A DNA stretch of 64,000 bases from a virus (IMGVR_UViG_2541047879_000001), one strand, 5' to 3'. Shown: positions 30,746 through 41,492, counted from the first letter of the stretch. Notes: generated by a model not told the origin, from the letters alone. Numbers and translations are program-made.

Positions 30746-31168
30746 ATGGCAAAAGTATTTACACAGGAAGAGCGAGAAAAAATTAAAGGGCAGATTGTTG
30801 ATCTTGTACGCCAGAGCGGGCGAGAGACGTTACGACAACTGGAAGCTAAAACGGGGGCGACAAGATATCTGATAAGCGCTCTTGCTAGGGAGTTGGTTGC
30901 GAATGGTGATGTATACAACTCTGGCTATGGGTTATTTCCGTCTGAGCAGGCACGTCAAGACTGGCAAAACGCCCGCAAAAAACTATCGAGGGCAAAGGTG
31001 AAGAAACCAGTTGTGGTTGATCTGGACCTTATTTGGTCATTACCAGACGGAGAAATACGTCGCTACGACAGGCGTCTGAACATAATTTGCCGTGAGTGCC
31101 GGAAGAGTGAAGTTATGCAGCGTGTATTAGCATTCTATCAGGGAAATGTTCGGTATTTATTGAAGTGA
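30746..31168 (+). CDS. Hypothetical protein
   Basis: Start at ATG 30746 (MAKVFTQEEREK...); 140 aa. Confidence 0.45.
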   Translation: MAKVFTQEEREKIKGQIVDLVRQSGRETLRQLEAKTGATRYLISALARELVANGDVYNSGYGLFPSEQARQDWQNARKKLSRAKVKKPVVVDLDLIWSLPDGEIRRYDRRLNIICRECRKSEVMQRVLAFYQGNVRYLLK

Positions 31169-31377
31169 CGAGATTAAAGACCATTAATTCATATGTGAAT
31201 TGACAGTTTCATGGCACAGGATACGGCTAGCGTGGTTGTCTGTTTTGTGCCAGGGGCGGGCCTAACTAAGTTCACACAACATTGATTATTGAAGATTAGG
31301 TCAGAAATAAATAGGTTATTTTGATAATTTAGTTACGTTAGAATGCCGCAGTGTACAAAGTAAAAATGAGGAATAAT

Positions 31378-32739
31378 ATGACTCGGAGTGAAATAAACGT
31401 CTGGGATAAGAGACGAGGCACCAATAGTCATCGTGTGGAGGAGATTCGATCTGAAGCTCAGCACGACCTTTCTCGACTGATTCACTCGTCTGCTTTCAGA
31501 CGATTGCAATCCAAAACACAGGTTCTTGGTCTGGGTGAAAGTGATTTCTACCGCACACGACTGACTCATTCTATGGAAGTCGCACAAATCGGTTCAGGTC
31601 TTCTTGCTAAGCTGAAAATAAAATATAAAGGTAAAGAGCAAGAGCAATTTTTACCAGATAACGATCTTATGCAGGCAGTATGTCTCGCACATGATATTGG
31701 ACATCCTCCATTTGGTCACGGCGGTGAGGTAGCTCTTAACTACTGTATGCAGGATTACGGTGGTTTTGAAGGAAACGGTCAGACACTTCGCATTCTCTCG
31801 AAACTAGATAAGTATACCGTTGAACACGGACTCGATCCTACACGCAGACTTCTGCTAGGCATACTGAAATATCCGGTTAAATACTCGGATCTAGTGGTTA
31901 CAAAAGACAGAATCCCGGCCACTATCGGATCGCCGAACTGGCTCTTTAAGTCATCTGATTTTAAACCTCCAAAATGCTATCTAGATTCAGAATGCGATGT
32001 TGTAGAATTTGCTCTTTCACCATTTACTGAACAGGATCGGAGGCTTTTTACTTCCGTTGAAGATGGTCAAACTAAATCCGATCATAAAAAAGCTTCTTAT
32101 AAAGCTCTCGATACAACCATCATGGATCTTGCCGATGAAATTTCGTATTCGCTGCACGATTTGGAGGATGCTATTTCTCTCGGAATGGTGACACGAGAAA
32201 TGTGGATGGAGCATTTCAGTGAATATGAAACCCTATTTACTAACTGCCATGGAGAAACATTTTCCGCAACATGTGAATCTGTCGCGGATAGCCTTTTTGG
32301 TGAAAGTTACAAGAGAAAAGAGTGCATCGGGATGCTGGTTCACCTGATGATTACAAGCGTTGAGCTTATTACAAAGAATCCAGCATTCGAATGTGGCATG
32401 CTCAAATATAATGCGGTCCTTCCGGAAGCGGTCGAAGCACTACGGTTGAAAATTTTCAAACTGGTCAAAAATAAAGTAATTAAGCATGAAAATGTACAGC
32501 AGCTTGAATTCAAGGGACAAAAGTTGATTGTTGAGCTTTTCGGTGTGCTGGCTAACGATCCGTGTCGGTTTCTACCGGCATCAACGAGGGAAATTTACGA
32601 GCGGCAGACTAGCTTGGACGAGAAGGCTGGTATGCGAGTCATTTGCGACTATGTTTCAGGGATGACTGATGACTATGCAACAAAGCTTTATGAGAAGATC
32701 CTTATTCCACGCAAAGGGTCTATTTTTGACCATCTCTAA
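31378..32739 (+). CDS. HD-domain dGTP triphosphohydrolase-like protein (Dgt family); candidate antiphage dNTP-depletion enzyme
   Basis: N-terminal SSAFRRLQSKTQV...RLTHSMEVAQIG and HD motif VCLAHDIGHPPFGHGGE matching dGTPase family; start at ATG 31378 with GAGGA 5 nt upstream; AT-rich gene in accessory island. Confidence 0.8.
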   Translation: MTRSEINVWDKRRGTNSHRVEEIRSEAQHDLSRLIHSSAFRRLQSKTQVLGLGESDFYRTRLTHSMEVAQIGSGLLAKLKIKYKGKEQEQFLPDNDLMQAVCLAHDIGHPPFGHGGEVALNYCMQDYGGFEGNGQTLRILSKLDKYTVEHGLDPTRRLLLGILKYPVKYSDLVVTKDRIPATIGSPNWLFKSSDFKPPKCYLDSECDVVEFALSPFTEQDRRLFTSVEDGQTKSDHKKASYKALDTTIMDLADEISYSLHDLEDAISLGMVTREMWMEHFSEYETLFTNCHGETFSATCESVADSLFGESYKRKECIGMLVHLMITSVELITKNPAFECGMLKYNAVLPEAVEALRLKIFKLVKNKVIKHENVQQLEFKGQKLIVELFGVLANDPCRFLPASTREIYERQTSLDEKAGMRVICDYVSGMTDDYATKLYEKILIPRKGSIFDHL

Positions 32740-33149
32740 TGCGGCAAGAATGATGCTCTGAGTTCAATTGACCTATAAACATTAACCAAGGCATCTACCA
32801 GGGGGATATCAAATCCCCCCATTCTGAATTTGTTCGTGCAGAATCGGTGAACGTTCTCATCTGAGCGTTAAACGCCAATAATCGTTGATCTACATTGATC
32901 ATTAATACACCTTAATACCATTAGCGTCTTACTCCGTTATGAGAACAAACGCGAACTGACCTGCCCCCAGTATTAGTGACCTTCAGCTACGGTAACTTGT
33001 CCGCTTCGTGCCAGAAGCGGACATCCATAGAGAAATAAGCGATCAGTTCTTAAATTTGTTGTGATTTTTTGATTTTTTTGTATTCGCAAAGGGATTTGTG
33101 TTGGTTGTATAATTACCTAATATTCATACAGTTGAATGGGAGATGTGGG

Positions 33150-34043
33150 ATGAAGTTCTCGTACAGACATGGTTTTGATCCTGAGTATAATAAAAAGCCG
33201 ATACGGGAAGATGCTCCAGAGTGGCTTCGCTCTTTATTTTTTGTAACTGTCCTCGATAATTTTTTGTACATTGATGGTGATAGCCGCATTACGAATGATG
33301 AGAACAAGCCGTTGGGTATTAAGGCTTTGATCGAGCGACTTTGCGCAGAGAATGGTCAAGAAACAGATCATGAGGATTTCGATTCATGGTACTGCTATGA
33401 TGCTTTGAAAGCGCGTTTGCAACATATGCGTTGGTTTCAATTTTATGATGCTGTTGAGATTATCGGAGATCTATTAAGAAAAAGAGATGTAGAAAGAGGC
33501 CATACTTGGGGTAAGAAGGCATTAGAAGACATTACTTTTACATCATATCGTCAGAAATTGAACGAGTTATTCGCATCTCGAAATATTGACTGGAAAATGA
33601 ATTCTGCTGGTAGGTTAGAAACACCACTACCAAATGAATTAGAACAAAAAATCGATGAAACTAACAACTTATTGCAAGACCAGTTTGAACCTGCAAGGAG
33701 GCACTATGTGAAAGCCCGGGCTTTTGCATTAGGTGCGCATAAGGATCCAGAAAATTCCATAAAAGAATCAATAAGTGCAATAGAAAGCATGTGTCGGACT
33801 TATTATCCTTCAGCCTCAACCTTGGGCGATGTATTAAAACTGATGAGAAAAGAAAACACTATCTCACCTATGCTTTTAACGGTGATAGAGAAATTTTACG
33901 CTTATACAAATGCAGAGCCAGCAGTAAGACATGGTAGCAACAAGGTTTCTTCTGTCTTGGAATACGATGCTGAATTCGTGTTGCATATATCAGCAGCATT
34001 TATTAGAACAATAATACAAAGAAAAGCTGTTTTGGATAACTAA
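33150..34043 (+). CDS. Hypothetical protein, possibly Abi-like (helical, contains Rx6H motif RAFALGAH)
   Basis: Start at ATG 33150 (MKFSYRHGFDPEY...) preceded by candidate -10 TATAAT (33108-33113); AT-rich; domain assignment unverified. Confidence 0.5.
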   Translation: MKFSYRHGFDPEYNKKPIREDAPEWLRSLFFVTVLDNFLYIDGDSRITNDENKPLGIKALIERLCAENGQETDHEDFDSWYCYDALKARLQHMRWFQFYDAVEIIGDLLRKRDVERGHTWGKKALEDITFTSYRQKLNELFASRNIDWKMNSAGRLETPLPNELEQKIDETNNLLQDQFEPARRHYVKARAFALGAHKDPENSIKESISAIESMCRTYYPSASTLGDVLKLMRKENTISPMLLTVIEKFYAYTNAEPAVRHGSNKVSSVLEYDAEFVLHISAAFIRTIIQRKAVLDN

Positions 34044-34283
34044 GTCAGACTTACAGCCAACTGACTGTCTCTTATTATTCAAAACATAATAATGTTAGGT
34101 CCGCTTATCGCACATCAGGGACAACCATACTCAAATCTCCCACATTGCAGGAGATTTGAGTGTGAACACGTCACCGTGGAACAAAGACTGTATCATCGGT
34201 CAAAAAAGACCTGGTTATCTAGCAAAAACTTTTAACATACCAACAAACTTAATTTATTTAAATGCTATTAATACAACTAATGT

Positions 34284-35510
34284 TTAAAATATATATTTTA
34301 TATCAACCCAATTTTTAGCATTATTGTCAACTAAAGTAACGCTATGTCCATGACTTGAATTTATAGCATCGATTACTGATTGTGATGGGTGTCCATGTGA
34401 ATGACCATCCGACTGAGCTATAAACAAAACATTATCAAAATCCGCAATTATTTTTTGATTGAAATTTAATTCCGAACCATGATGAGGTAATGTCATCACC
34501 CTTACCGTTTTAATCACTTTTGAATAGAATTCAGCCCATTTATTATAATACAATGATGTATTAAGCTTTGAGTCACCTGTTAATAAAACAGATCTAATTC
34601 CTTTATCTCTATCAAAGAGAAAATGTCGCTCAACCCGACTATTTCTAAAACTAAACCACTCACGAGAAGGCTCATTAACAATTTTCATCTCAGCTTCTTG
34701 ATTATTAATAATCAAGAGATTGATTGATATTACATTATGATCGCCAGCAAGTTTTAAATAACACTCGCGTAATTTCTTTCTTTCCCCCGTGCTAGTTAAT
34801 ATTTTAAGCATTTTTTTCTTACTTAACTCAGTAAAACCATTTTCTATTAACTGCTGACTGAAAATTTCAATTTTCTTACGTGAACGGGGCGGTATCCAAG
34901 AAATAAATGACATTAGTGTATCAGTTTTGTTTTCCCCAATCCTTTTAACCAACCAACGGTTACATTCAACATCTCCTTTGGAGTCAGATATTTTCATTGG
35001 TAAGCTTACAGCGCTATCCTTAATGTTTTCACTATTAAATATAGGAGGGTCAAAATTATCATCAATATCACAGGGGTAAAGCAAAGATATATCTGCCTCA
35101 GGCAACCTTGATTTTATCCATTTGACAGGATCAATGAGAAATTCCATAAAAAGACCTGACGTAGAATTAGAGCATAGCTCCGATGCAATTAAGTAATAGC
35201 TATCATGGATATCTAGGTATGGTAATACAACCTTGCGTATTTTGTTATCTACAAGCTGACATAAATGGTCAAATCCATTTATATGGTCTGAATCCAAATG
35301 AGAGATGTATACCACATCAATATATTTCTCATCAATATTAAAGAGAGATTTAGCCACATCCATCTCCCTACGCAACGCATTTAATTGGTCACTTCCGCAG
35401 TCATACACATAACTGTAAAGCAAACTACCATCCCTTCCCCTCAGTCCGCCTAAACTAAATCCACCCTGGCCAACGGGAAACAATCTTTTATGAAATACTT
35501 CTCCGCTCAT
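34284..35510 (-). CDS. Standalone metallo-beta-lactamase-fold hydrolase (ComEC/Rec2-type MBL domain, putative nuclease)
   Basis: 408 aa; motifs PVGQGG, HLDSDHINGF (HxDxDH-type metal site) and LPHHGS characteristic of the ComEC-type MBL domain; no TM segments; AT-rich. Confidence 0.7.
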   Translation of the reverse strand: MSGEVFHKRLFPVGQGGFSLGGLRGRDGSLLYSYVYDCGSDQLNALRREMDVAKSLFNIDEKYIDVVYISHLDSDHINGFDHLCQLVDNKIRKVVLPYLDIHDSYYLIASELCSNSTSGLFMEFLIDPVKWIKSRLPEADISLLYPCDIDDNFDPPIFNSENIKDSAVSLPMKISDSKGDVECNRWLVKRIGENKTDTLMSFISWIPPRSRKKIEIFSQQLIENGFTELSKKKMLKILTSTGERKKLRECYLKLAGDHNVISINLLIINNQEAEMKIVNEPSREWFSFRNSRVERHFLFDRDKGIRSVLLTGDSKLNTSLYYNKWAEFYSKVIKTVRVMTLPHHGSELNFNQKIIADFDNVLFIAQSDGHSHGHPSQSVIDAINSSHGHSVTLVDNNAKNWVDIKYIF

Positions 35511-36224
35511 ATATCCTTCTTACACCCTAACGTGATCATAAAATTGTCTTAAAGTTAAGTTTAAAGCTAAAAAGTCACAGCTCATTCCAACTCGTGAGCA
35601 ATAGGAATGTATATTCAATCAGTTAGAGGATCAACCCGATTTTCTCTAATGAGATTTCGCAACGCAGTACGAACAGCAGCTACTTCTGCCATCTCATTAA
35701 CAACCACACTGGACTACAATCCCCTAAGTTCTACAGACTGTAACCATATCCTCTTCACAGAAATAATCTGATTAATGCTGAAGGTCATCTTTCTCGACGC
35801 GAATGTATGACATAACAACCTCAGTTAATTATCTTTCGATAGAAAAATACCTTCACAAAAGGTTTAAGCAACCCATCACAAGACAACACGCTAAGCTTGC
35901 CTTGTAAGCGTCCTGCTTAACCGAACAGTTCGCTTTCAGAGGATCTCCGGAGAACAGCTCCGATGCCTTATAAGGCCAATGCTCGCTCCTCGCTCACTGC
36001 GGACCTAAGGTTTGGTCAGCTTGTTCGCACTCTGCCAAAAGCGGGAGTTACTCCCATTCGGTGTTAATCAATGTAGAGCAGATCAATCAACGACAAAGAA
36101 AATGAGAGGCATATCACTACTCATATGAAAATTATTGTAGTAAAGTGAGCCGTAAGTTCATCATTTATAAATCATATAGCATATATGTTATATCAATTTT
36201 AATTTAAATGGCAGAATAATTACC

Positions 36225-36929
36225 ATGGAAAAAATTAAAACTCCTTGTCCATATTGTAAAGGTGAAAAAAATTGCCACATAATAGGCCATAAAAAAAGAG
36301 AATGGAGTGAGGATGATGGGGGCAACTATTTTTGGGCTGAAAGTGAATACAAATTATTAGAGTGTATGGGGTGCGACGGAATATTTACATATATTAAATC
36401 CCGTCACAGTGAAGATTACGACATTGAAAGAGATGAGTCAGGCTATGATTGTATGGTATATAACTATCATATATCAACATATCCCACTCAAGAGCAAGAA
36501 GAGATTAGACCAACTTGGTTTGGTGAGACATTAAACAAAGATCGTCAGCTGTATGTAATAATGAACGAAATGTACATCGCATTTCAAAATAAATCATTCA
36601 TTTTAGCGGCGATTGGACTTAGAACTATTTTTGACAGAACAGTTGAGGTTCTAAATATTCATCCAGGATATACATTAGGCCAGAAGGTTGACATTCTTAA
36701 AGAGGAAGGTTTTATTGGGGAAACAGAAAGGAGCCAACTTAAAATTGTAACCGAAGCTGGCAACTCAGCTGCACACAGGACATGGGCACCGAACGAAACT
36801 GAATTTAAATCGCTTTTGGTAATTATAGAAAATTTTGTAATGCGAACAATACTAAAAAATGAGGATATATTTAAGATTACAGAAAAATTACCTGCGAAAT
36901 ATCCAAGACCTCCCAAAAAGCAAGAATAA
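36225..36929 (+). CDS. Zinc-ribbon / DUF4145-like (HEPN-superfamily-like) protein
   Basis: 234 aa; N-terminal CPYC...CMGC zinc ribbon; C-terminal AAIGLRTIFDRTVE...GNSAAHRTW resembling DUF4145; AT-rich. Confidence 0.6.
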   Translation: MEKIKTPCPYCKGEKNCHIIGHKKREWSEDDGGNYFWAESEYKLLECMGCDGIFTYIKSRHSEDYDIERDESGYDCMVYNYHISTYPTQEQEEIRPTWFGETLNKDRQLYVIMNEMYIAFQNKSFILAAIGLRTIFDRTVEVLNIHPGYTLGQKVDILKEEGFIGETERSQLKIVTEAGNSAAHRTWAPNETEFKSLLVIIENFVMRTILKNEDIFKITEKLPAKYPRPPKKQE

Positions 36930-37367
36930 TGTACGTAAGTGTAAATAGAGCTAAGAGATTATATATTGACTCTGGTTATCTCTATTAGCACATGCTTTTT
37001 GTAATGCCTTAACTGATTATTTAAACTCCTGTCAGCTTTTCGCTCAAAGCGGACTAAAGTGTTGGCTTGTGACTGACTTAGCGCATTTAAGGAAGTGGTG
37101 GTGGTGACGGGGTGTTGTGTCCCATTTCCACAGAATAAATCAGAGAAACTATAGCGGCTGTAATGGCAATCTATGGTCTTGCTATTGCTCTTATGGATCA
37201 CCTTTCTGATTGATTTCATATTGGCGAGGTAACGGGAGTTAAGTAGAATAGCTGCGGGTGCTTGAGGCTGTCTGCCTCGGGCATGAACACCAAAGGCAGA
37301 TAGAGAAAAGCCCCAGTTAACATTACGCGTCCGGCAAGACGCTTAACATTAATCTGAGGCCACATCT

Positions 37368-37616
37368 ATGCTTTGCATACGTAGATTAGCCTCTTACCGA
37401 CCAAAAGGTCAAGGAGAAGCAGGCTATGAAGCAGCAAAAGGCGATGTTAATCACCCTGATCGTCATCTGTTTAACCGTTATAGTGACGGTACTGGTAACG
37501 AGGAAAGACCTCTGCGAGGTACGAATCCGAACCGACCAGACGGAGGTCGCTGTCTTCACAGCTTACGAACTTGGGGAGTAAGAGGACCAGCGGGGAGAAA
37601 TCCCCGCAACCTCTGA
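37368..37616 (+). CDS. mok: mok-like overlapping reading frame of hok locus
   Basis: 82-aa frame starting 58 nt upstream of hok and overlapping it in another frame, as in hok/sok loci. Confidence 0.45.
   Translation: MLCIRRLASYRPKGQGEAGYEAAKGDVNHPDRHLFNRYSDGTGNEERPLRGTNPNRPDGGRCLHSLRTWGVRGPAGRNPRNL
37426..37581 (+). CDS. hok: Hok/Gef-family type I toxin
   Basis: Own translation MKQQKAMLITLIVICLTVIVTVLVTRKDLCEVRIRTDQTEVAVFTAYELGE (51 aa, below track cutoff), near-identical to E. coli Hok proteins; SD AAGGAG upstream; 3' hairpin GCGGGGA-GAAA-TCCCCGC at 37590-37607. Confidence 0.85.
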   Translation: MKQQKAMLITLIVICLTVIVTVLVTRKDLCEVRIRTDQTEVAVFTAYELGE

Positions 37617-38044
37617 TGTATTATGCATCCTCAACGCAGCCACAGTTAACCTGATTGGCGGGTTTACTTCATCTGTAAATATTTTTATAAAAATAATGCC
37701 CACGCACAGCATAAAACAAAAAGTATTACAGATAAAAAAGGAACGTAATGTACAGATTTGTTGTTTTCCATATTTACTCACCTTAATATGATTAACCCTG
37801 ATAGGGCTGTTATTTCAGCGGTTTTCAAATGAGATATTATGGTGATCTGACAAATTTGCATAACATTAAAATTTAATTTGTTTAACCGCTTTTAATAATA
37901 AGCGTTGTTTGTATCCCAGCAATCTGTTGTTTGGTTTTTATTCCATTAAGGTGGGGGCTTTACACTGGAACCAGTTTATTTATACTTTATACGTCAGCCT
38001 GAACAACTGGCATCTGCTGCACTGCGCCATCGAGAGATTGAGAA

Positions 38045-38644
38045 ATGGCGCATATACAACTGGTCAAACAAACTTCTTCTGGTTTACTTCTCCCGGCGAC
38101 GCCGGAGAGTTGCGATTTTCTGCATCAAATCAAAATAGGTGAGTGGATACACGCAGACTTTAAGCGTGTGCGTAACTACGCATTCCACAAGCGTTTTTTC
38201 AAACTCCTGCAACTGGGATTCGATTACTGGACTCCGGTCGGTGGGGCGATCACGCCTCGCGAACGAGAACTGCTGTCTGGTTTCGTTGATTACCTGTGCG
38301 AATCAGTTGGTCGGGAACACACGCCAGCCCTGAGTGATGCCGCAGAGCAATACCTTAACACCGTTGCGACTCGTAGAACCCGGGATACGGCGTTGCTAAA
38401 GTCGTTTGAGGCTTTCCGCGAGTGGGTAACCATTCAGGCCGGATTTTACACCGAGCATATTTATCCGGACGGTAGCCGTGGGCGTCGGGCAAAATCCATC
38501 GCTTTTGCGAATATGGACGAAGTCGAGTTTCAGCAGGTTTATAAATCTGTACTGAATGTGCTGTGGAACTGGATTCTGTTCCGTAAATTCTCCTCTCAGG
38601 AGGAAGTTGAAAATGTGGCCGCACAACTACTGGAGTTTGCGTAA
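38045..38644 (+). CDS. Nin-region protein (DUF1367-like)
   Basis: 199-aa ORF upstream of ybcO-like and Q-like genes; family assignment from memory of similar prophage proteins. Confidence 0.5.
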   Translation: MAHIQLVKQTSSGLLLPATPESCDFLHQIKIGEWIHADFKRVRNYAFHKRFFKLLQLGFDYWTPVGGAITPRERELLSGFVDYLCESVGREHTPALSDAAEQYLNTVATRRTRDTALLKSFEAFREWVTIQAGFYTEHIYPDGSRGRRAKSIAFANMDEVEFQQVYKSVLNVLWNWILFRKFSSQEEVENVAAQLLEFA

Positions 38645-40517: not shown

Positions 40518-40946
40518 ATGGGTTTTCGTAGCGCATCAATTCTTACGTTGATTATTAGTGGGATTATTATCGGGTGCACTGATGCTGTATCGACAAATTA
40601 TCATGACCGTACATCATATTACTCCGATAAAGCAATAGAGACACAGTATGTGAGTTCATCTGAACGTACTTCTGATGTTAGTGAGGATATCCGTCTGTAT
40701 GCCCATCAAATCAAGAGCGCCATCGAAAAACAGTTCGGGGATGCGAGTAAGTATTCAGGAAAAGAGTGTACACTGAGAATGCATATGGCCCCGAATGGCC
40801 TTCTACTGGAGGTTAAAAGAGAAAGTGGAGACCTCGATTTATGTCGTGAAGCGATGAATGCGATAAAGAATGCTGATATACCTGCCCCCCCTTCGCCGGA
40901 AGTATATAAAGTATTTCAAAATGGGGTGCTGGATTTTAAACCCTGA
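40518..40946 (+). CDS. Lipoprotein with TolA C-terminal domain III-like fold
   Basis: 142 aa; signal peptide with lipobox IIGC; C-terminus YAHQIKSAIEKQFGDASKYSGKECTLRMHMAPNGLLLEVKRESGDLDLCREAMNAIKNADIPAPPSPEVYKVFQNGVLDFKP aligns closely with the E. coli TolA C-terminal domain. Confidence 0.7.
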   Translation: MGFRSASILTLIISGIIIGCTDAVSTNYHDRTSYYSDKAIETQYVSSSERTSDVSEDIRLYAHQIKSAIEKQFGDASKYSGKECTLRMHMAPNGLLLEVKRESGDLDLCREAMNAIKNADIPAPPSPEVYKVFQNGVLDFKP

Positions 40947-41096: not shown

Positions 41097-41492
41097 GTGG
41101 GATTAAAGAAAATCGTTATGTTGACTTTTTGGGTCGGTTTTGTTGCGGGATGCACACCTTTACACCCTTCAGATTGCCACAAAACTACTGCTACAGGTAG
41201 TTGCAGTTCAGGACGCTGGGATGATCAGGATGAATGGGGGGCGCAAGCGCGGGGAATCAGAGCTGCAATTAATGCCAAACTTGATGAGCCGCATAACTGG
41301 AAAGGGAAAAAATGCAGGTTGCATATGGAATTCTCTCAGGATGGCACGGCGTTAAAAATATCTACCAGTAACGGTGATAAAGCCTATTGCGAAGCGATAA
41401 AGTCCGCAGCTCATAAAGCCAAATTTCCGGCCTTCAACAATCCGGAAGTCTACAGAGATTTTCAGAAATCTGGCTTTGACATGCGAGGTTAG
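41097..41492 (+). CDS. Second TolA domain III-like lipoprotein (divergent paralogue)
   Basis: 131 aa; GTG start with GAGGAG SD; lipobox VAGC; C-terminus KKCRLHMEFSQDGTALKISTSNGDKAYCEAIKSAAHKAKFPAFNNPEVYRDFQKSGFD follows the same pattern. Confidence 0.6.
   Translation: MGLKKIVMLTFWVGFVAGCTPLHPSDCHKTTATGSCSSGRWDDQDEWGAQARGIRAAINAKLDEPHNWKGKKCRLHMEFSQDGTALKISTSNGDKAYCEAIKSAAHKAKFPAFNNPEVYRDFQKSGFDMRG

Follow-up and report, generated by a model that had tools for sequence, protein, structure and literature searches.

A variable-cargo defence hotspot of the Rac prophage carrying an anti-phage dGTPase, three candidate defence genes and a hok/sok locus

The closest described counterparts of the region reported here are the defence hotspots of P2 and P4 prophages (Rousset et al. 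2022, PMC9122126; Vassallo et al. 2022, PMC9519451). Among described proteins, the nearest to its cargo include RAZR, or PD-T7-4 (accession RRL46918.1; supplement of Vassallo et al. 2022, PMC9519451), a validated abortive-infection RNase with the catalytic pair R146/H154 that is switched on by assembly of its zinc-finger domain around ring-shaped proteins of phages (PMC13017515); and the proteins combining AbiJ-NTD4 with an AbiJ-type C-terminal domain, an architecture catalogued by Anantharaman et al. 2013 (PMC3710099). The DNA analysed is a viral stretch of 64,000 nucleotides (IMGVR_UViG_2541047879_000001, hereafter the window), which carries at positions 31169-37616 an island of a Rac prophage, lying between a DUF977 gene and a DUF1367 gene. 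This island is a variable-cargo defence hotspot of Rac; the concept is already known from P2 and P4 prophages, and no description of the DUF977-DUF1367 site of Rac was found in the searchable literature. We consider it quite probable that the interval is a Rac hotspot with exchanged moron cargo, which consists in this copy of four single-gene anti-phage units and a hok/sok stabiliser. The best-supported account of the load is one established system (unit A), one computational candidate (unit B), two single-gene candidates (units C and D) and hok/sok (unit E).

The original prediction, made from the sequence of the window, had described here a low-GC island of about 6.4 kb with five units in mixed orientation (a dGTPase, a possible Abi-like protein, a ComEC-type metallo-beta-lactamase (MBL) hydrolase, a zinc-ribbon/DUF4145-like protein and hok/mok/sok), in an interval deleted from the Rac prophage of K-12. 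All five units were found where it had placed them, by the list of open reading frames (ORFs) and by the RefSeq annotation of the copy in E. coli S40, whose island is 99.9% identical to that of the window. The units and their flanks are:

30746-31168, plus strand: left flank, DUF977 family gene, the last of the Rac replication-side module (Pfam DUF977, 4e-30; RefSeq coding sequence in S40)
31378-32739, plus strand: unit A, anti-phage dGTPase family, 453 aa (NF041026; PADLOC dGTPase; Pfam HD and HD_assoc)
33150-34043, plus strand: unit B, AbiJ-NTD4 protein, 297 aa (PADLOC PDC-S32; Pfam AbiJ_NTD4)
34097-34211, plus strand: remnant of a small tyrosine-recombinase gene (identity to the 5' ends of intact integrase genes)
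34284-35510, minus strand: unit C, stand-alone ComEC-type MBL-fold hydrolase, 408 aa (conserved MBL ligands; ComEC-like fold)
36225-36929, plus strand: unit D, N-terminal Cys4 zinc ribbon and C-terminal DUF4145 HEPN-fold domain, 234 aa (by architecture)
37256-37616, plus strand: unit E, hok/mok/sok (sok region 37256-37431; mok 37368-37616; hok 37426-37581)
38045-38644, plus strand: right flank, DUF1367 gene (Pfam DUF1367, 6e-98), which opens the nin-like region ahead of DUF1364 and DUF1133

The GC content of the island is 0.391, against a window mean of 0.478 and values of 0.504 and 0.491 in the left and right flanks; only 8 of 288 sliding 6.4-kb windows reached a GC as low, and the minimum begins at 31601, within the island. 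In S40 the island belongs to a full-length Rac prophage inserted at ttcA (RefSeq annotation), in which it follows intR, xisR, ralR, recET, kilR, sieB, the repressors, ydaT-ydaV, DUF1627 and DUF977 and precedes DUF1367, DUF1364, DUF1133, the lysis genes, trkG and the structural genes. When the segment 29235-39473, which spans both flanks, was used as query, the K-12 derivatives matched only its first 1,183 bases (covering ydaV and a portion of DUF1627), and a lysis gene is the next one annotated after the partial DUF1627 of K-12 Rac; the interval is therefore deleted in K-12 Rac, as the prediction had stated.

Different cargo lies between the same flanks in other Rac copies, which identifies the site as a variable-cargo hotspot. 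A comparison of this locus across Rac-like prophages had been proposed together with the prediction, and it revealed ten or more distinct sets of cargo in the interval from DUF977 to DUF1367 or hok, the whole island of the window being present in 9 of 5,426 complete E. coli genomes. The limits of the variable segment, defined by blastn against other Rac copies, fall at about 31142-31264 on the left and about 37657/37658 on the right, in near-perfect agreement with the predicted ends; in copies with other cargo the DUF977 gene is 84-87% conserved and the right flank is kept from about 37658-37996 onward. The cargo at the same site (named after the RefSeq annotation, except for PD-T7-1, which was tested by PADLOC) includes: IteA/IteS in strain U1; a divergent TetR gene and an operon that encodes adenosine deaminase, a non-canonical purine NTP pyrophosphatase and a SIR2 protein in strain ET82 (locus L008:2698-5771); Dcm, O-methyltransferase and ATPase in MB07011 and O157:H7 strains; an ABC-three-component system in another Rac copy; and, in further copies, a nucleoid-associated protein, DUF262 with an AAA ATPase, an AAA ATPase with DUF4435 (which, judging from the annotation, may be PARIS-like), DUF262 with a TPR protein, KilA-N, and QueH. 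A different lambdoid prophage, in WCHEC035125, has the same bay from DUF977 to hokD, and one of its cargo genes is PD-T7-1 (PADLOC, 7e-157). The recognised defence types at the site are thus IteA/IteS, SIR2, ABC-three-component, DUF262, AAA with DUF4435, dGTPase and PD-T7-1. The Rac of U1, which carries IteA/IteS, lacks hok/sok, so that hok/sok is to be counted as cargo and not as flank. Recombination would swap the cargo between DUF977 and DUF1367 of Rac-type lambdoid prophages, the flanks staying in place. As a separate observation, the ET82 set is a nucleotide-centred combination that was matched to no named system.

The island is repeatedly struck by insertion sequences (IS), namely IS3, IS1A and IS421 (loci L013, L014 and L015, from strains E1, 1919D3 and ET490, and others); after IS-mediated deletions, which also take out neighbouring Rac genes, some genomes retain the dGTPase alone, units A-C alone, or a truncated unit D with hok. 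Partial islands in three genomes were considered as independent modules and rejected as such, the annotation revealing IS3/IS1 truncations of the same island. These IS3, IS1 and IS421 insertions and deletions, found in several genomes, together with the truncation of the integrase gene inside the island, would suit the view that the island is decaying horizontally acquired DNA without current function, a by-product of IS elements and recombination in a cryptic prophage. We regard this as very improbable: the five reading frames are intact and 99-100% identical in nine unrelated isolates, the catalytic and metal-binding residues are invariant among distant homologues, and the Rac copy is full length and retains the structural genes.

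Unit A is a member of the anti-phage dGTPase family, in agreement with the predicted dGTPase; its activity is deduced from this membership. It scores 560 bits against NCBIfam NF041026 (antiphage_dGTPase; cut-off 400), 557.6 bits against PRK05318 (cut-off 383) and 8.7e-145 against the PADLOC dGTPase model, and contains the Pfam domains HD (31.6 bits) and HD_assoc (68.8 bits). The defence family reportedly goes back to Tal et al. 2022. By analogy with the family, unit A would hydrolyse dGTP during infection and starve phage DNA replication. The dGTPase module of the window (31247-32957, including its own flanks) has a copy with 97% identity in a chromosomal defence island of E. coli 1303; there a small integrase gene precedes it, and type I restriction-modification and DarTG genes follow.

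Unit B, predicted as possibly Abi-like, does match Abi-type models: PADLOC PDC-S32 (PDLC04997) at 5.8e-34, residues 26-318 of the long ORF aligning with positions 5-280 of the 285 of the model, and Pfam AbiJ_NTD4 at 33.9 bits (cut-off 34); none of the named AbiJ models of PADLOC was matched. Among the 128 clusters of homologues, nearly all carry PF18863 in the precomputed annotation and a few carry PF14355 (Abi_C). The invariant residues are D199, E201, N202, K205, E206, S209, E212, R260 and H261; R260 and H261 are adjacent, whereas arginine and histidine are spaced in the Rx4-6H motif. From this architecture, the N-terminal domain might sense a phage component and free a HEPN-like C-terminal toxin domain, leading to abortive infection.

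Unit C has the metal centre of the MBL fold, as expected for the ComEC-type hydrolase that had been announced. Among 62 diverse members of a family with at least 375 clusters of homologues, the ligands H71, D75, H76, D313, H343, H344 and H374 do not vary and D73 hardly varies, and the set fits the HxDxDH, D, HH, H pattern of the fold, indicating an intact, ComEC-like centre. The AlphaFold2 model (pLDDT 86, pTM 0.89) has a ComEC-like fold, and at 408 aa the protein is about 140 residues longer than the 266-residue chain of the ComEC MBL domain. The match to TIGR00361 (ComEC/Rec2) is restricted to the MBL part (15.8 bits, cut-off 190), and the PADLOC matches, which include LmuA-hydrolase, Avs1a, 6A-MBL and RTasMBL, are local and cover 50-95 residues. 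No STAND, SMC or reverse transcriptase (RT) gene lies beside unit C in the S40 annotation. Identity with the MBL protein of DS-42 was considered and discarded, only short motifs being shared. Unit C is proposed to be a phosphodiesterase with two metals, most likely with nuclease activity towards nucleic acid of the phage or the cell; both its substrate and its trigger are putative, and the approximately 140 extra residues might gate the enzyme.

Unit D combines a zinc ribbon with a HEPN fold, and both elements of the predicted zinc-ribbon/DUF4145-like protein are present. Each of the cysteines C8, C11, C47 and C50 is shared by 140-148 of 150 relatives; H184 and R133, the latter in the first helix, are found in all 150, and R185 and D137 in 145 each, within a family displaying the motif (D/E)AG(S/N)AAAH-R-GW. 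The predicted model displays a beta-rich N-terminal domain, with the zinc ribbon and the HEPN fold. In an exhaustive profile search, 2,722 representatives of clusters at 50% identity reached E <= 0.001 and 279 reached E <= 1e-30; among the best 150 matches listed, almost every one spans nearly the whole profile, and most are about 230 aa long, while a word-indexed search returned 16 clusters only. Relatives are present in 25 IMG/VR viral contigs, and unit D matches phrog_1305. A sequence search of the PDB with unit D and two profiles of its family returned nothing relevant. DS-38 of DefensePredictor, which also joins HEPN and a zinc finger, was rejected as the identity of unit D: it has 366 aa and its zinc finger is C-terminal. 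The original prediction had held that at least two genes of the island lack a nameable defence function; for unit D this has to be revised, given that its zinc-ribbon/DUF4145 architecture has a counterpart in RAZR/PD-T7-4 (PMC13017515); judged by its sequence, unit D is not detectably a member of the RAZR family. By analogy with RAZR, unit D would bind a phage protein through its zinc ribbon, have its HEPN domain activated by oligomerisation, and stop translation by cleaving RNA; such a RAZR-like mechanism is less certain because the catalytic motif is non-canonical. A side observation concerns both HEPN-type proteins of the island: R260-H261 of unit B resembles H184-R185 of unit D, each being an adjacent Arg/His pair.

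Unit E is hok/mok/sok, confirming the prediction: sok scores 105.2 bits against Rfam RF01794 (gathering score 59), hok scores 74.4 bits (5e-21) against Pfam HOK_GEF, and the mok frame (37368-37616) overlaps hok in the ORF list. Hok/sok would kill cells that lose the locus and thus stabilise the cargo. A stretch of about 125 bp upstream of hok/sok (37027-37153) recurs at 82-86% identity in hotspots with different cargo (loci L007 and L008), and ET82 (L008) keeps it though its hok gene is gone; the stretch may have been left behind by recombination, or may belong to the hok module as a regulatory element.

Homologues of units B, C and D occur independently in moron sites of other prophages. In Pseudomonas aeruginosa a homologue of unit B with 47% identity lies directly beside the portal gene of a P2-like prophage, a position corresponding to P2 hotspot 1 (Vassallo et al. 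2022, PMC9519451). Homologues of unit C stand alone in five places: in Proteus, in a lambdoid prophage, with Q on one side and the lysis genes on the other (82% identity); in Enterobacter, at a prophage end beside an AIPR gene (83%); in Serratia, where a P2-like prophage ends and ogr is the neighbour (39%); in Pseudomonas, adjoining a PDC-S11 gene; and in Sphingobium, adjoining a PLD-domain gene and an ABC-three-component system. Close homologues of unit D stand alone in the Z/fun hotspot of a P2-like prophage, where the tail-fibre assembly and sheath genes enclose the gene, and after pinE at the end of an e14-like prophage. These contexts bear on whether neighbouring genes form multi-gene systems, with B as sensor and C as effector, or with C and D divergently co-regulated. 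Units B and C are indeed adjacent and convergent, C and D share a divergent intergenic region of 714 bp, and the MBL effectors of Lamassu, AVAST and DS-42 act with partner proteins. However, unit C occurs without B and D in the Proteus, Serratia and Enterobacter prophages, unit D does so in the P2-like and e14-like prophages, and unit B is found without C or D next to the P2-like portal gene and in Klebsiella and Dickeya; moreover, the gene upstream of the Pseudomonas homologue of C has no similarity to B, and a truncated integrase gene separates B from C in the island. Multi-gene systems are consequently a far less plausible explanation than single-gene units that came separately, as would follow from the fact that other mobile elements carry the dGTPase module, the MBL gene or the zinc-ribbon/HEPN gene by itself.

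The truncated small-integrase gene would mark one junction between such units. The segment 34097-34211, which separates the stop codon of B from that of C, shares 90-92% identity with the 5' portions of intact integrase genes of 603 nt (loci L006 and L007); what remains of the gene is its upstream region, a palindrome whose arms measure 12 bp (34129-34140 and 34150-34161), a GTG start at 34162 and about 16 codons, after which it is truncated. The palindrome of these genes lies just before the start and covers the ribosome-binding site, and the intact protein has 200 aa and consists of the catalytic domain only (Pfam Phage_integrase, 69 bits). Intact copies are:

L006, 6050-6652: intact integrase gene
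L007, 6721-7323: intact integrase gene
L020, 4554-5156: intact integrase gene
L021, 4554-5156: intact integrase gene

Related segments are present in 794 of the 5,426 E. coli genomes (about 15%), nearly always under an annotated integrase. In every context inspected except one plasmid, the integrase has a validated defence gene as neighbour, and the neighbours at four unrelated loci are PD-T7-1, DS-38 (Nissle 1917), DS-11 and the anti-phage dGTPase (E. coli 1303); PD-T7-4 was also described as often overlapping an integrase gene (Vassallo et al. 2022, PMC9519451). The remnant supports a piecemeal assembly of the island, and by association it supports a putative defence role of the genes beside it. 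The 200-aa recombinase may mark or move small defence cassettes.

Several results weigh against reading the island as a set of anti-phage units. Protection from phages has been demonstrated for the family of unit A, whereas for units B, C and D it is inferred. PDC-S32, the model matched by unit B, is a computational candidate only, without description in the PADLOC output; to our knowledge it has had no experimental test. Unit C falls far below the cut-offs of the known MBL effectors (31 bits against 420 for Avs1a; 23.7 against 220 for 6A-MBL), and the MBL effectors of known systems are controlled by partner proteins, which are absent at unit C. In the family of unit D an arginine 4-9 residues upstream of H184 was found in 1 of 150 sequences, so that the canonical HEPN arginine is missing in the other 149; furthermore, unit D matched no PADLOC model, and none of the 150 family representatives matched the PD-T7-4 model, a library that contains PD-T7-1 and PD-T7-5 being taken to include this model too. 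Because of the missing arginine and the absence of a PADLOC match, RNase activity of unit D is not assured. By tblastn, neither unit C nor unit D had a match in 50,697 GenBank phage genomes. Finally, scans of the island for promoters and terminators gave results equal to the shuffled expectation, so that own transcription of each unit, presumably from a promoter of its own, is suggested only by spacing and orientation.

An alternative is a mixed-purpose moron island: only the dGTPase would defend, unit C would be a counter-defence or signalling-nucleotide phosphodiesterase protecting the induced prophage, and the HEPN-type proteins would be selfish addiction genes of toxin-like nature. Apyc1, a phage anti-Pycsar enzyme, provides the model for such a role of unit C. 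We judge this arrangement unlikely, and favour a hotspot whose single-gene units act against phages. More tentatively, and with rather less confidence than we place in the hotspot itself, a joint interpretation can be proposed, in which units C and D would be two never-validated anti-phage systems: D representing a clade with the RAZR architecture, a different zinc ribbon and a centre of H184-R185 and R133/D137, which would be either a new HEPN site or non-enzymatic; C a sensor-free nuclease effector; and the 200-aa recombinase a possible marker or vehicle of defence cassettes.

Two other features of the window were noted. The segment from the DUF1133 gene to the lysis cassette contains two small genes whose annotation is TolA or TolA C-terminal-domain protein, at 40518-40946 and about 41118-41492 (positions taken from the S40 annotation, L001:29350-29778 and L001:29950-30324). 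The C-terminal domain of TolA is a co-receptor for filamentous phages and colicins, and the two genes might therefore encode decoys or exclusion factors. A minus-strand ORF of 86 aa (36959-37219) had no family match.

Rac is among the most widespread E. coli prophages, and the K-12 copy usually studied has lost the interval; a swappable defence bay in intact Rac would explain part of the variation in phage sensitivity between strains. The segment from DUF977 to DUF1367 is a simple genomic address for mining new systems. Units C and D, without cover in the PADLOC models searched, are short single-gene candidates that are easily cloned, and the small integrase, linked to four validated defence genes, is a possible vehicle for the transfer of defence genes.

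Compared with known systems, the components of the island range from ordinary to divergent. Unit A shares with the anti-phage dGTPase family the full-length match and the HD/HD_assoc domains, and is an ordinary member, here borne by Rac; unit E has the Hok/Gef toxin, the overlapping mok and the sok region of hok/sok from plasmid R1 and of chromosomal hokD, with no notable difference. Unit B, as AbiJ of Lactococcus and PDC-S32, has an AbiJ-NTD4 domain, fused to a putative helical C-terminal domain of AbiJ/Abi_C type, and differs from AbiJ by the adjacent R260-H261 pair in place of the Rx4-6H spacing. Unit C differs from ComEC in being a soluble, stand-alone protein without the channel or OB domains, and from the effectors of Lamassu (LmuA-hydrolase), AVAST type 1 (Avs1a), 6A-MBL, DRT and DS-42 in having no SMC, STAND or RT partner. 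Unit D is, like RAZR, a single protein of about 220-234 aa, borne by a mobile element, in which a linker joins an N-terminal Cys4 zinc ribbon to a C-terminal DUF4145 HEPN-fold domain, but it has no counterpart of the R146/H154 pair: the histidine is kept (H184) and R185 follows directly. As for the site, it shares with the P2 and P4 hotspots the fixed phage flanks, the short AT-rich bay, the cargo varying between similar prophages and the richness in defence genes, and homologues of B, C and D are found in P2-like prophages at the portal gene, ogr and Z/fun, respectively. It differs in belonging to a lambdoid prophage, in its position between DUF977 and DUF1367, and in holding four or five units, compared with the one or two typical of P2.

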